Shown here piece after piece: positions 10,510 to 19,221 of a stretch of 64,000 nucleotides of DNA. The stretch is from a virus. Taxonomy: Duplodnaviria > Caudoviricetes. The stretch is from the IMG/VR virus record IMGVR_UViG_2636415473_000002, positions 1 to 64,000 of that record; one strand, written 5' to 3'. The translations under genes were made by a program, and so were the position numbers. Positions within the stretch are counted from its first letter, which is position 1; the number at the start of each line of letters is the position of its first letter. The notes below the pieces were generated by a model. That model searched no databases. It saw only the letters and a list, made by a program, of their open reading frames with translations, and had not been told where the DNA came from.

Positions 10510-11064
10510 ATGAATACCGTTCAGCCGATTCGAGATAAGGAAATTATTCAAGAAATTAAGGAGTTTTTAAAAACTAGAAATGAGCGTAATTATGTTTTAT
10601 TTTTACTTGGTATAAATACAGGGTTGCGGATATCGGATATCTTAAAGCTTAGAGTTATAGATGTACAAGGGAGGAAAATTTATTTGAAAGAAAATAAAAC
10701 CGGAAAAGAAAAGGAAGTAGAAATGCCACCTGATTTAAAGAAAGTTATTCGTAAATATATAGAGGGTAAAAATAAAAATGATTACCTTTTCCCAAGTCGG
10801 CAAAAAGATAAACGAGGGAAGCCAAAGTCAATATCACGAGGGATGGCTTACGTGATTTTACAAGAAATCGCTGATGAATTTGGTTTGGAACGAATCGGAT
10901 GCCATTCGCTTAGAAAAACATACGGATACCATTTTTATAGCCAAACGAAAGATGTGGCTGCTTTGCAGGATATGCTTAATCACAGTGATCCAGATATAAC
11001 GAAACGGTATATAGGAATTAACCAAGATAAGCTAGATAAATATCAAACAAACTTTAAAATATGA
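10510..11064 (+). CDS. Minimal (catalytic-domain-only) tyrosine recombinase
   Basis: GLRISD, HSLRKT, LNHS and RYIG give an intact R-H-R-H-Y set; 184 aa, no arm-binding domain. Confidence 0.92.
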   Translation: MNTVQPIRDKEIIQEIKEFLKTRNERNYVLFLLGINTGLRISDILKLRVIDVQGRKIYLKENKTGKEKEVEMPPDLKKVIRKYIEGKNKNDYLFPSRQKDKRGKPKSISRGMAYVILQEIADEFGLERIGCHSLRKTYGYHFYSQTKDVAALQDMLNHSDPDITKRYIGINQDKLDKYQTNFKI

Positions 11065-11291
11065 CGGATTTATTCTTTTTTTACTATTTTGAGTTAGTCA
11101 TAAAAATCAAGTTGTTCAACTGGTTTTTAAAAAGGGTCTGAGGGTGCATTACAGCAACATTTTGATTGGGATGACGAGTTATACTCTTTATGTCTTGAAG
11201 ATAACTCAGAGGGCTAAAAAAAGGCAAATTTGAAGCGAAAAAGGACTAAAGAGAATATCGATTCATAAAACAAAACCACAAAAAGCGCCGT

Positions 11292-11355
11292 GGACTTTTC
11301 GCGGACAATTTTCGGACAATCCACGGACAACTTTTTTATTTTGGCATGTTATATT
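11292..11355 (+). promoter_or_regulatory. Predicted ArpU-activated late promoter
   Basis: GGAC at 11292, 11303, 11314, 11325 (11-bp period; three as CGGACAA) replacing a -35; extended -10 TG-T-TATATT at 11347-11355. Confidence 0.7.
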
Positions 11356-11556
11356 CATAGCATGGAAGTTTACTTCTAAATCTAATGTGGTTTTATTAGA
11401 TGGTAATCATTTCTGTCACCCTTATATACGGAATTTGTAAGCCTCTAATTATTAGAGGGTCTTTTTGTATAGGTGCATTGTCGTGATTTGTCGAACGATA
11501 GTGATTGTCCAGGTATTTCCTTTCATCAATAATTATTGGTGGAGGGAGGTATAAAA

Positions 11557-12471
11557 ATGAATGTAACAGATTTAGTAAACATACTTAACGGATTAGATGA
11601 TCAAGATTTAGATATGAGGTTGTATTTCACAAGAAAAAAACCTAACGGTAAATATCAATCTTATTCACCAACAATAGATCCAGATCTACAAAAAGAAATA
11701 AAGGATATTGTAAAATTGGCTGTAGAAAAAGTACAAAATGTCGAACAGCGTCCATTTAGTCCAATTGGTACAATAGAAGGATGCATAGAAACCTACGCTC
11801 CAAACGAAGTGACAAGTTTTAATGATATACTTGAAAGCATGAGTGAAGACTTTGTAAGTCGTAAAGAAATTCCACCTGAAGAAATTAGTAAATTAACTTT
11901 TTATTGTCTAAAAATATACACTGAAGAAGGAGATATCTTATTCTTTAGAAGGGTTACCAAGTTTAATCGGTTAAAAGGCGGTTTTTTTGGGAAATTTACT
12001 AATGGAGATTTTATGAAATTAGATGGCACTTTGCTCGGGATAGACCCAAATGTAGACATTGTTATTCTTGGTGAAGAAATGTTGATTTTAAATCACATTT
12101 CATTAGAAAGAATATTCTCTATCCAAGATCAATACCATGAAAAAGCAAGTCAAACACTTGACCTTGTGAGAAGAACAAACCGAATTACAAATTATGAACA
12201 ATTTCGGGAAGATTGTTTGTCAGATGGAAGAGTTACAAGAGCCTTAACTAAATTGCTCAATGAAGAAGATAGTATGCACCAAGTATTTGAAAATTTTGAA
12301 AATGTTATTCAAGTTATTGATATATTTGGATTAAATATAGAAATAGCAGAAGAAAATACAAAATTAGTCTACGAAGACAAATCTCAGCTGTTAGATATTA
12401 CAAGACTTATGAGGGATTCTTTTTATAGGTCATGGATTAATAACCGAGATGGATTTGATGAAGGAGTTTAA
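11557..12471 (+). CDS. kwaB: Kiwa anti-phage protein KwaB-like (DUF4868)
   Basis: Size and pattern (LLGIDPNVD...LERIF, final L..LMRDSFY); paired with a KwaA-like membrane gene; start after GGAGG. Confidence 0.7.
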   Translation: MNVTDLVNILNGLDDQDLDMRLYFTRKKPNGKYQSYSPTIDPDLQKEIKDIVKLAVEKVQNVEQRPFSPIGTIEGCIETYAPNEVTSFNDILESMSEDFVSRKEIPPEEISKLTFYCLKIYTEEGDILFFRRVTKFNRLKGGFFGKFTNGDFMKLDGTLLGIDPNVDIVILGEEMLILNHISLERIFSIQDQYHEKASQTLDLVRRTNRITNYEQFREDCLSDGRVTRALTKLLNEEDSMHQVFENFENVIQVIDIFGLNIEIAEENTKLVYEDKSQLLDITRLMRDSFYRSWINNRDGFDEGV

Positions 12472-12493
12472 GAAGAAAGAAGGGTGATTTTCG

Positions 12494-13072
12494 ATGATTT
12501 CAGTCCTATTTAGAATAGGTTTATATGTATCATCGTTTTTTCCTCTATACGTCTTACTCATCATTGATAATTATGAATATTACAGTACTTGGAGGGAATT
12601 TAAAAATATATTGTTGTATGAAAATTTTCTTCCTTCTACATTTAGTTATGTACTTTTGATTTTAATTATTCTTTCATTTATTTCACTTTATATTATTATG
12701 AAAATAAGGTTAAATGAAAAGCATAAATTTATTGGAGTATGTAAAACCGAAGATAATTTATTGAGTTATGTTGTTACATACTTAGTTCCGATATTGTCTA
12801 TAGATATAACAAAAGCTAATAGTCTATTAGTGAACCTAGGTTTGTTCTCGTTATTAGGATTTATATATGTGAAAAATAGTTTAGTTTATTTAAATCCACT
12901 TTTTTTGTTTTTTAGATATAATGTTTTTCTGACAGAAAATAATGAGGTCTTAATATCAGATTTAGATATATATGAACTGAAAAATTTAGAAGGAGAAAGA
13001 ATAAGGACAAGGGTACTTAGTTATAAAATATATTTAGTGAGAAAGAAAGATTCTTTACCAACAAACCATTAA
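12494..13072 (+). CDS. kwaA: Kiwa membrane protein KwaA-like
   Basis: Four hydrophobic segments; SSFFPLY, LSYVVTYLVP, YLNPLFLFFRYNVF. Confidence 0.65.
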   Translation: MISVLFRIGLYVSSFFPLYVLLIIDNYEYYSTWREFKNILLYENFLPSTFSYVLLILIILSFISLYIIMKIRLNEKHKFIGVCKTEDNLLSYVVTYLVPILSIDITKANSLLVNLGLFSLLGFIYVKNSLVYLNPLFLFFRYNVFLTENNEVLISDLDIYELKNLEGERIRTRVLSYKIYLVRKKDSLPTNH

Positions 13073-17824: not shown

Positions 17825-17963
17825 GCATCCCTTTAAGGGTGCTTTTTATTTGGAGAAAGAAGGGAGTTATGAGGAGGAAATAGTTAATTTTAATCATAGA
17901 AGGAAACGTGATTTCCATGCCGAAATTAATAAATAATTGATATGAATGGTGGTATGATTTTAC

Positions 17964-18470
17964 ATGGAAAGATTCACGATTGAAGATTTATTAGGTATAA
18001 AAAAGCGTAAAGTTACAAGCGATGAGCCTGAAAACAGTATTAAACTTGTGGGGTTACAAGAATTTGAAAGATCAAAAGAAAACAATTATGAGATTGTCTA
18101 TACTAAGAGAAATGAACCTGTATTATTAGTTAAACCTAAAGTCTTTGATAGCTTAGCAACATTTCGGTTATTTACCTATACATTCGGACATATAGAGTGT
18201 TTTAGAATTCATTTTCATAGATTTTGTGATGAAATTGAAATCATAGATGTTGTTGTCATTGGCGAAGAGTTTCATAATAAAGGATATGGAACAGTATTAA
18301 TTCAGGAAGTAATTAAATATGCGGAAAATGTTGGTTCCAAAAGAATTTACGGAAGTATTGTGAATGACTCTCTCGAGCAACATCAAAGACAAATATCATT
18401 CTATAGCAAGAATGGATTTACTTTATATGACGACAATTATAAATTTGAAATGTTGTTTGAAAAAAATTAA
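17964..18470 (+). CDS. GNAT acetyltransferase
   Basis: FHNKGYGTVLI acetyl-CoA motif; FYSKNGF. Confidence 0.8.
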   Translation: MERFTIEDLLGIKKRKVTSDEPENSIKLVGLQEFERSKENNYEIVYTKRNEPVLLVKPKVFDSLATFRLFTYTFGHIECFRIHFHRFCDEIEIIDVVVIGEEFHNKGYGTVLIQEVIKYAENVGSKRIYGSIVNDSLEQHQRQISFYSKNGFTLYDDNYKFEMLFEKN

Positions 18471-18534
18471 AGATATTAAATATTAGCATTCCATTAAGGA
18501 GTGCTTTTTATTATGTAGAAAGAAGGTGAGGATC

Positions 18535-18840
18535 ATGCAGCCATGTCGGTGTACTAATTGCCAGCAGATGTTCGCAATTGATTTGAAAGAAAAGGACCAT
18601 GGTAAAGGAATAACCGAAACATTCTTTTCCTGTTCATTTTGTAACCATCGATACTTAGTTACGGTAACTAACCGAACCATACGGAATCGTATAAGCAAGT
18701 TCTCTAATGAGTGGGCAAAGATGAGTAAGCTAAGGAACGGCAAGGAATGGGATAAAGACGTGTGGATGAAGAAGTATGAGAAGCTGCAGACATATAAGCC
18801 AGTGACTAATGAAATGATCCATAAGCTAAAGGCACAGTAA
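18535..18840 (+). CDS. Zn-ribbon plus coiled-coil protein (paralogue of 15573-15881)
   Basis: CTNC...HGKGITETFFSCSFC. Confidence 0.75.
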   Translation: MQPCRCTNCQQMFAIDLKEKDHGKGITETFFSCSFCNHRYLVTVTNRTIRNRISKFSNEWAKMSKLRNGKEWDKDVWMKKYEKLQTYKPVTNEMIHKLKAQ

Positions 18841-18855
18841 GCATCTACTTGATGG

Positions 18856-19221
18856 GTGCTTATTCTATTGGGAGGAATCGTTACCTTGGCAGAGTATAAA
18901 ACAATGGAACAGAAGAAGAAGTTCTATAGGTCGGGTGGATGGGAGCAGCTAAGACTCGAGGCTCTAAAGAGAGATAACTATGAGTGCCAAGAGTGCAAGC
19001 GACAAGGGATGGTACACGTTGACTCACTTAAGGTAGATGGGCAACGCAAGAGTATTGAGTTGAATGTGCATCACAAGTATGAGATAGAACATCATCCGAA
19101 GCTTGCGTTGGTATTAGATAACCTTGAAACACTTTGTCTTAGTTGTCATAACAAAATGCATCCTGAAAAAGGTTTTGGTAAGAAAGGAAAGCAGACGAAG
19201 TGGAATGACGAGATGTGGTAA
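18856..19221 (+). CDS. Packaging-associated HNH endonuclease (HK97 gp74-like)
   Basis: RDNYECQEC...VHH...NLETLCLSCHNKMH; directly before cos/terS. Confidence 0.92.
   Translation: MLILLGGIVTLAEYKTMEQKKKFYRSGGWEQLRLEALKRDNYECQECKRQGMVHVDSLKVDGQRKSIELNVHHKYEIEHHPKLALVLDNLETLCLSCHNKMHPEKGFGKKGKQTKWNDEMW

Follow-up and report, generated by a model that had tools for sequence, protein, structure and literature searches.

The window analysed here, 64,000 nt long (positions 1 to 64,000 of the IMG/VR virus record IMGVR_UViG_2636415473_000002), holds in its first ~42 kb a prophage, that of a temperate Bacillaceae siphophage, in which a series of heterogeneous genes between the late regulator ArpU and the HNH/terminase genes is punctuated by copies of one terminator hairpin. 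Taken together, our data make it probable that these hairpins are shared joints for the swapping of gene units by homologous recombination or conversion, and not integron sites; that the stretch is an accessory-gene slot, with a late regulator block on one side and the HNH/terminase genes on the other; and that the 184-aa tyrosine recombinase encoded at the left end of the slot belongs to the conserved core of this phage group and is no cassette enzyme. A preliminary description of the same DNA had proposed an integron-like cassette array in which the repeat is a standard joint, used either by the adjacent recombinase or by short-homology recombination.

The repeat itself is real. The pattern GCATYYN{4,9}RRGTGCTYWTT has seven matches in the window, all on the + strand (hairpins 1 and 3 to 8 in Table 1), against a chance expectation of 0.01, and none of 100 shuffled sequences reaches seven; the whole 5.43-Mb genome has eight matches, hence only one outside the window. 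To these is added hairpin 2, which has the family tail GCTTTTTATTTTGGAGAAAGAAGG despite its other stem. All eight copies show the features of intrinsic terminators (a G+C-rich stem, a short loop, a U-tract on the transcribed strand and a position at a gene end), the hairpins being 17-24 nt long, with stems of 6-10 bp, loops of 3-6 nt, fold energies of -10.3 to -15.1 kcal/mol and a U-tract after each, weakened at 18841; by these features they are classed as sense-strand intrinsic terminators. Positions 9000-21000 contain 16 terminator-like sites versus 4.8 in shuffled sequences. The T-run often leads straight into a shared ribosome-binding site (RBS) tail (TTTTGGAGAAAGAAGGTGAGG...ATG) or a shared 87-nt promoter module, and the string GAAAGAAGG occurs 10 times in the window compared with 1.06 expected, seven of these occurrences falling inside 12475-18526. 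Several details of the preliminary description were confirmed: copies 1 and 4 are identical over 26 nt (13072-13100 and 16190-16218 are 97% identical over 29 nt), a TAA stop codon abuts the hairpin at 13070-72, 17822-24 and 18838-40, and the copy at 18486 has a C-G to T-A change at stem position 5. Its statement that every cargo unit ends in the element holds for most units, the 78-aa open reading frame (ORF) at 15322-15558 having only a decayed relic. In all, the slot contains ~9 transcription units (morons), of which eight close with an intrinsic terminator, seven of these belonging to the one sequence family.

The terminator family is specific to the prophages. In the genome that carries the window, GCATCC..GGGTGC followed by T occurs four times, always in this prophage, which rules out a general host terminator flavour, and the perfect form GCACCC..GGGTGC has no occurrence there. 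Across the genus the wobble pattern has 114 matches in 47 genomes versus 19 for the reversed control. In phage-linked copies the 3' arm GGGTGC is constant and the 5' arm varies (GCATCC, GCACTC, GCACCC, GCATCT); since this drift proceeds by transitions that always keep a G-C or G.U pair, it points to a constraint at the RNA level, for which the RNA-sense strand matters. Folded as single-stranded DNA, the top strand is the more stable in seven of the eight copies, the bottom strand having a C.A mismatch. An Rfam search at E up to 1 over 9500-19700 gave only two sub-threshold chance matches. It could still be argued that the units are ordinary morons whose terminators are alike by chance or convergence, with no shared history or joint function, given that every copy is a canonical terminator and that many chromosomal terminators of the genus likewise have GCAC..GTGC stems (107 matches for the GCAC variant of the pattern). 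Such an origin is, however, very improbable in view of the seven copies found where 0.01 are expected, of an identity of 26-30 nt that includes the loop and extends from the window to six IMG/VR contigs, of the tail and promoter module held in common beyond the hairpin, and of the coincidence of homology breakpoints with the element.

A blastn comparison of 9000-21000 with all fetched loci gave, within the cargo region 11065-18885, matches to the hairpin with its tail (24-46 nt), to the promoter module (72-108 nt) and to the gene of the first Zn-ribbon copy, and a further match of 73 nt at 75% to locus L010 over the candidate late promoter (11294-11366); the rest of the cargo is unique in this comparison. 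In 66 other genomes of the family, outside that of the window (G000), the cargo DNA has only four short matches: ~165 nt at 76% in kwaB (G032), ~120 nt just past the recombinase gene (G037 and G004) and 67 nt of the promoter module (G019). A megablast of 9800-19700 against 50,697 phage records yielded no match. A second prophage of the same genome (L033) is 91% identical to 15545-15893, and its alignment resumes only at 18829-19293, with 83% identity. In a three-way alignment, the end of the first Zn-ribbon copy and the second prophage agree up to GGGT(G/A)CTTTTT and diverge thereafter, and the second Zn-ribbon copy is unrelated until AAGGCACAGTA-GCATCTACTTGATGGGTGCTT, from where it runs on into HNH like the second prophage. 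Because the partner is switched exactly at the hairpin, the 2.9 kb between the two copies would be an insertion or replacement hinged on it. The Zn-ribbon gene of the second prophage, 91% identical to the first copy of the window, appears to be shortened by a frameshift near its 3' end.

A related Kiwa cassette is found in the IMG/VR locus L172 (KwaB 75%, KwaA 79%), between ArpU and Zn-ribbon/TerL genes and with no recombinase match. The DNA similarity to the window, at 73%, begins at 11516 within the promoter module and stops at 13100, immediately behind the T-run, and the stem and loop of its hairpin are identical to those of the window. Of two further Kiwa loci, one (L173) is closed by a GCATCC..GGATGC hairpin and the other (L174) is not. 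At its left junction (~5000-5030), the Kiwa cassette of L172 has the string AGGAGGAATCGTT, which precedes HNH in the window (18870-18882) and in the second prophage; this suggests that the cassette entered beside a copy of the HNH leader. The pair of genes that includes an NsnB-like ATPase is followed by a GCATCC hairpin in L100 and by the divergent stem in the window, so the same cargo can be re-paired with a different terminator.

A wider comparison used the hairpin contexts of 85 IMG/VR loci with GCATCC-N4-7-GGGTGCTTTTTAT (79 newly listed, and L043-L048); the raw IMG/VR count of at least 120 hairpins says nothing without a control and was not used. With pairs taken as informative if at least one 200-nt flank is similar, flanks were discordant across the hairpin in 122 of 140 pairs (93 similar upstream only, 29 downstream only), and in 90 of the 93 upstream-only pairs the similarity collapses within 30 nt past the stem. 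Downstream of the hairpin, discordance was 20/53 at +250, 23/56 at +400 and 14/53 at +600 nt. The breakpoint check across related prophages, as proposed in the preliminary description, thus places the breakpoints at the hairpin (in the second prophage, in L172 and in the 90/93 IMG/VR pairs), and the use of the repeat as a standard joint for short-homology recombination is supported by homology breakpoints at the hairpin with its tail.

Array and enzyme occur apart. Twenty-four loci from GTDB genomes were picked solely for a homologue of the recombinase (37-78% identity; Fredinandcohnia, Neobacillus, Fictibacillus, Heyndrickxia, Paenibacillus and other genera), and the hairpin pattern was found in none of the 24. 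The gap between recombinase and HNH is only 0.3-2.4 kb in the 11 of these loci where HNH was located, the terminators in 11 inspected intervals (L009-L017, L028, L029) have unrelated stems, and in the minimal layout (L012) the recombinase is followed by Zn-ribbon, HNH, TerS and TerL genes. Conversely, of ten prophage loci from the genus to which the genome of the window belongs, nine lack a homologue of the recombinase, and eight of these nine carry 1-4 family hairpins upstream of HNH. In the second prophage, four units are closed by GCATCG.., GCACTCA.., GCATCC..GGATGC and GCATCTA.. hairpins with the same TTTTTATTTTGGAGAAAGAAGG tail; no recombinase homologue occurs within 12.8 kb upstream of this array, the nearest in the genome being ~70 kb off. 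The exact 26-mer of hairpins 1 and 4 was found in six IMG/VR contigs: in L043, L044 and L046 it stands 0.7-1.3 kb before HNH with no recombinase match, and L047, with three hairpins, is the only one of these loci with a recombinase. A family hairpin on the same strand lies within 6 kb upstream in 14 of 16 substantial HNH loci of the genus (coordinates read by eye), and HNH, TerS or TerL is just downstream of the hairpin in 48 of the 85 IMG/VR loci; the joint is common to phages with unrelated packaging genes (TerL 21-80% identical).

In an integron-like arrangement, the 184-aa recombinase would capture and excise cassettes at attC-like hairpins and the adjacent site pair would be attI-like. 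The layout resembles this, a recombinase gene and an adjoining site being followed by hairpin-bounded units that are partly defence genes; the catalytic motifs of the enzyme look intact; and in IMG/VR loci with enough flank hairpin and recombinase co-occur, as detailed below. We nevertheless regard this reading as extremely improbable. The recombinase scores 52.6 bits with the integron-integrase model TIGR02249 versus a cut-off of 265, and 24.3 versus 435 with PRK15417, and the N-terminal domain is absent. The site of a recombinase dimer needs a crossover region of 6-8 bp, for which the hairpins are too short; they are backed by T-runs, have no motif in common with the GAGTTA...TAACTC sites of the recombinase itself, and bear the C.A mismatch on the bottom strand. 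The cassettes are oriented as the recombinase gene is, and at least two have their own promoter module. Finally, hairpins are present without the recombinase in eight of nine same-genus loci, in L043, L044, L046 and L172, and in the second prophage. Integron-like capture by the adjacent recombinase, as put forward in the preliminary description, is not supported in view of the model score, of the 0/24 and 8/9 counts and of the enzyme's probable own site pair. Arrays do occur in phages that lack the enzyme, an outcome that the preliminary description had itself named as speaking against such capture.

The recombinase is a mini-recombinase with probable sites of its own. It has no N-terminal domain and falls under every curated NCBIfam tyrosine-recombinase cut-off, with 39 and 35 bits in the FimB and FimE invertase models versus cut-offs of 222 and 221. 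Directly past its stop codon lie two inverted 32-bp elements, 55 bp apart, whose position is kept in 32 loci of several genera (among them L009-L018, L021, L023-L025, L028, L037, L047 and L171). The two arms covary, 78.3% of the cells being paired versus 28-38% when the partner is slid, a score that none of 500 shuffles reaches; 81 cells are changed on both arms versus 14-32 when slid. An RNA reading of the inverted element was rejected: RNAalifold gives no consensus structure, and since G.T mismatches (33) are not above A.C mismatches (39), the pair is a feature of the DNA level. These paired elements are probably the recombinase's own cognate binding site. The system is like the FimB/FimE single-domain invertases and the arm-spacer-arm sites of Cre/loxP type in its size (~190 aa), in the absence of an N-terminal domain and in having two inverted 32-bp sites beside the gene; unlike FimB/FimE, it is far under the invertase cut-offs, and its sites are only 55 bp apart. 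An inversion switch was also considered and rejected, the central segment being forward in all 21 comparable pairs and reversed in none. The same genome contains seven further mini-recombinase paralogues, with 40-55% identity; four are split or broken, and a hairpin match (C3:59490-59525) is found ~2 kb away from the paralogue on contig C3. The available excerpts of the literature on a mini-recombinase beside ArpU offer nothing on its function.

The exchange of units at shared joints may be pictured as follows. The hairpins, with their predicted terminator activity, would stop the transcript of each unit and so insulate its neighbours in the lysogen, while late transcription would run through the array. 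The 25-60-nt patch at unit boundaries would supply the homology for the gain, loss and replacement of units through homologous recombination of host or phage, or through gene conversion; it can serve as such because the same 25-60 nt recurs at boundaries in this and in related phages. Shared sequence, tail and promoter module would in this way persist through unit exchange and duplication at the joints.

A number of observations weigh against this picture. In L172 the stem and loop of the hairpin show 100% conservation next to coding sequence with 73% identity, which asks for selection or repeated conversion and not plain descent. A stretch of 25-45 nt is short for RecA, and a scan of 10 early ORFs, out of 17 with a length of 90 aa or more, detected no RecT/Erf-type annealing protein. 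In the IMG/VR pairs, discordance is equally high at the 5' edge of the leader, a conserved element upstream of the hairpin, with 114/133 at -250 and 85/105 at -400, but 6/19 at -600; the hairpin is therefore the 3' edge of a conserved block of ~300-400 nt and no unique hotspot. The IMG/VR loci were moreover selected by the motif, and the pairs are non-independent. No exchange event was seen directly in the collections, which have one genome per species. As to the recombinase, it is found within 6 kb upstream in 30 of the 85 IMG/VR hairpin loci, and where a locus extends 4.5 kb or more upstream and has late genes downstream, both features are present in 17 of 19 cases, so that a role for the enzyme is made only unlikely. 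Our reading of this co-occurrence is that both features are parts of a single late-control block, conserved in a large phage group which includes B. cereus-group phages (MY192).

A stronger form of the idea, which we hold with little confidence, is that the hairpin, T-run and RBS tail form a purpose-kept, lineage-wide 'plug' of the ArpU/HNH-cos Bacillaceae phages, insulating, yet specifically read through late, and, by its sequence identity across phages, a universal docking joint for swapping defence genes; the mini-recombinase with its 32-bp sites may then belong to the same late switch and not to DNA mobility. If so, the phage could harbour without harm whatever gene came to lie between two copies.

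Read-through also underlies a different explanation, in which selection acts on regulation: only terminators overridden by a late read-through device (perhaps an ArpU-linked, Q-like antitermination) would be tolerated, and the joints would be a by-product. A candidate late promoter, marked by CGGACAA repeats, lies at ~11350, and the terminator at 11442 follows its TATATT box by ~85 nt. The same succession of repeats, a -10-like box, a terminator 35-330 nt further on and the first late gene recurs in L010, in MY192 (L171, ~6890-7290) and in B. cereus-group IMG/VR loci. We infer that the CGGACAA block is an ArpU-dependent late promoter with a built-in leader terminator, which would imply a read-through step; if this is the case, the whole array lies in the path of late transcription, where morons classically stand, with up to nine terminators to be read through. 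The position of the array between this promoter and the packaging genes, and the recurrence of the promoter-terminator layout in relatives, fit the regulatory explanation, as does the finding that in B. cereus-group loci the cargo upstream of the promoter has unrelated terminators and, ahead of the late genes, the final terminator is in most cases a GCATCC one; the hairpin identity in L172 likewise favours some selection. On the other hand, terminators outside the family are also found past the candidate promoter, at 11442 and 15267 in the window and with a GGGCAACTG type and a GTAGCT stem in relatives, the loops vary freely among copies, and an antitermination that is processive, like that of lambda Q, does not depend on any particular terminator. 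Regulation as the sole cause is, on balance, unlikely, and the shared joint remains our preferred explanation of the array.

The features of the slot and its surroundings are collected in Table 1. The prophage has a full-length integrase, followed by repressor-type, replication (Lin1244-like, DnaB) and dUTPase genes. As read from the sequence, the late regulator block comprises ArpU, the mini-recombinase, its site pair and the candidate late promoter; a non-coding stretch of 490 nt separates the recombinase gene from kwaB. The cargo has a GC content of 25-34% versus 34-43% for the late genes.

Table 1. Features of the accessory-gene slot and its surroundings (window positions; the last two rows refer to contigs of the same genome)
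Feature	Coordinates	Strand	Evidence or remark
Full-length integrase	1-1194	-	Arm-binding and SAM-like domains
ArpU-family late regulator	10072..10503	+	TIGR01637, 135 bits vs cut-off 43; phrog_248
184-aa tyrosine recombinase, catalytic domain only	10510..11064	+	Pfam Phage_integrase, 93 bits; phrog_216; second recombinase of the prophage
Left 32-bp site of inverted pair	11091..11122	.	Alignment of 32 loci
Right 32-bp site of inverted pair	11176..11207	.	Alignment of 32 loci
Candidate ArpU-dependent late promoter	11300..11356	+	Three CGGACAA direct repeats ~11 nt apart, then TATATT; 75% to L010 over 73 nt
Terminator hairpin outside the family (CCTCTAA/TTAGAGG)	11442..11466	+	Ahead of promoter module 1
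Promoter-like module, copy 1	11462..11548	+	TTGTCC-17-AATAAT, TGTCGAA box upstream
Kiwa pair	11557..13072 (KwaB 11557-12471, KwaA 12494-13072)	+	PADLOC KwaB 4.2e-125, KwaA 1.1e-67; Pfam KwaB
Hairpin 1	13073..13097	+	GCATCCT-TTCG-AGGGTGC and T-run
NsnB/AAA_15-like ATPase and 175-aa partner	13301..15194 (ATPase 13301-14662, partner 14667-15194)	+	PADLOC NsnB 1e-59; Pfam AAA_15/AAA_21
Hairpin 2	15267..15312 (stem copy 15267-15294)	+	Divergent stem GAGTCATCTC/GAGATGGCTT, same T-run and RBS tail
78-aa ORF	15322-15558	+	Ends in decayed joint
Zn-ribbon phrog_1315, copy 1	15582-15881	+	
Hairpin 3	15870..15893	+	Overlaps 3' end of Zn-ribbon copy 1
73-aa ORF	15963..16184	+	No family match
Hairpin 4	16191..16215	+	
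Promoter-like module, copy 2	16210..16296	+	
DUF3219 protein	16306..16773	+	
Hairpin 5 and tail	16787..16825	+	Tail TTTTGGAGAAAGAAGG
316-aa protein	16874..17824	+	phrog_11743
Hairpin 6 and tail	17825..17863	+	
GNAT acetyltransferase	17964..18470	+	
Hairpin 7 and tail	18486..18526	+	GCATTCC/GGAGTGC, compensatory pair
Zn-ribbon phrog_1315, copy 2	18535..18840	+	Diverged
Hairpin 8	18841..18864	+	T-run weakened; directly before HNH
HNH endonuclease	18886..19221	+	First of the packaging genes
TerS	19328-19630		
TerL	19627-21261		
Other mini-recombinase paralogues	C1:3086423, C4:2133, C1:887197		
Broken mini-recombinase paralogues	C3:61481-62010, C2:169627-170074, C1:2677879-2678362, C1:1942841-1943358		

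The defence-like nature claimed for the cargo holds for two units and for no other. In the first, KwaA, a membrane protein, adjoins KwaB (DUF4868), both with full-length matches and in the order kwaB then kwaA, and the pair is accordingly assigned to Kiwa. The second consists of the NsnB-like ATPase and its 175-aa partner, the latter having no family match; the two recur as a pair, just before HNH, in the IMG/VR phage L100 (65% and 41% identity) and are a candidate two-gene defence system. The hairpins at 15870 and 18841 coincide with the 3' end that the two Zn-ribbon paralogues have in common. Relatives of the 316-aa protein and of the DUF3219 protein were sought in viral contigs and none were found. 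The array of the second prophage (G000:C1:1858000-1877000, ~9000-13600 of that locus) carries a CotD-like spore-coat protein, a secreted 146-aa protein and a pair of a TetR regulator and an SDR oxidoreductase.

The 87-nt promoter-like module precedes kwaB and the DUF3219 gene, and may drive these two units; a third copy is found in the second prophage (G000:C1:1870334). At least two units have their own module, and others have the RBS tail only. Hairpin 4 and the second copy of the module form a single block of 108 nt, 88% identical in L048, and composites of terminator and promoter number three (11442/11462 and 16191/16210 in the window, 12248/12320 in L033). The module (TTGTCC-17-NATAAT, with TGTCGAA/TGACGAA boxes upstream) was also observed in L048, L035 and L045, often fused to the hairpin. 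Its boxes resemble the Spo0A box.

Among known systems, the closest parallel is provided by the promoter-early stem-loop (PeSL) cassettes of T4-type phages. According to the available excerpts of two reports (Arbiol et al. 2010, PMC2839356; Comeau et al. 2014, PMC4122927), a terminator-bearing motif is repeated in a hyperplastic region of non-essential genes and is the exchange point between otherwise unrelated sequences, and mini-circles as well as promoter and terminator activity were shown for PeSLs. The slot described here is similar in that one conserved terminator-containing motif is repeated through a variable region and the breakpoints fall in the motif, as judged from few close relatives and from loci selected by the motif. 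In contrast to PeSLs, it belongs to a temperate Gram-positive siphophage rather than a lytic T4-like myophage, most of its copies consist of a terminator with an RBS tail instead of a promoter with a stem-loop, and the array is confined to a single slot before the packaging genes. A literature search on conserved terminator joints in Gram-positive prophages turned up, in the portions accessible to us, only T4 PeSL and general hotspot papers. The features of the present variant are the temperate Gram-positive host range, the terminator-plus-RBS joint, replaced in three places by one of terminator and promoter, the confinement to the slot before HNH/terminase and the sharing across phages.

Three other comparisons delimit the array further. 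Morons of lambdoid and other temperate phages are reportedly promoter-gene-terminator units inside late operons; they are expressed from the prophage, and classical ones have unrelated terminators. Like them, the units of the slot are accessory and defence genes between core genes, have their own terminators and are AT-richer than the core; unlike them, they have terminators, tails and promoters that are sequence families common across units and phages. The P2/P4 hotspots of prophages and satellites are defence hotspots, and they share with the present slot a fixed position between conserved genes, a content that varies by phage and the presence of defence systems (here Kiwa and the NsnB-like pair). 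The slot differs from them in being punctuated internally by one repeated joint and in having several units without any sign of defence, the CotD-like protein and a DNA ligase in related arrays being examples. With integrons, the array has in common a tyrosine recombinase gene followed by one-directional, hairpin-bounded cargo that includes defence genes, but the enzyme is no IntI, a type of integrase that is full-length and has an additional segment of its own. Integron cassettes are promoterless and are read from a shared promoter next to attI; in the slot, at least two units have a promoter-like module. The attC sites are long imperfect palindromes of ~57-141 nt with paired core sites and extrahelical bases, folding on the bottom strand; the hairpins described here are about one fifth of that size, are terminators, and have the weaker fold on the bottom strand in seven of eight copies. 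On the whole, the array may work in the manner of PeSL-type cassettes, as a set of regulatory elements that are mobile, and also in that of morons arrayed at a prophage hotspot.

The proposed organization bears on both the regulation and the gene content of these phages. It removes the tempting but wrong analogy with integrons and raises two questions in its place, namely the function of a very widespread mini-recombinase with its own paired sites, and the way in which late transcription passes up to nine terminators. The use of regulatory motifs as recombination joints, so far a matter of lytic T4-type phages, would be extended to temperate phages of Gram-positive bacteria. Finally, the hairpin with its tail between the ArpU block and HNH/terminase would be a searchable signature of the accessory and defence slot in a large group of Bacillaceae prophages, and this slot may be a practical place to seek new defence genes.

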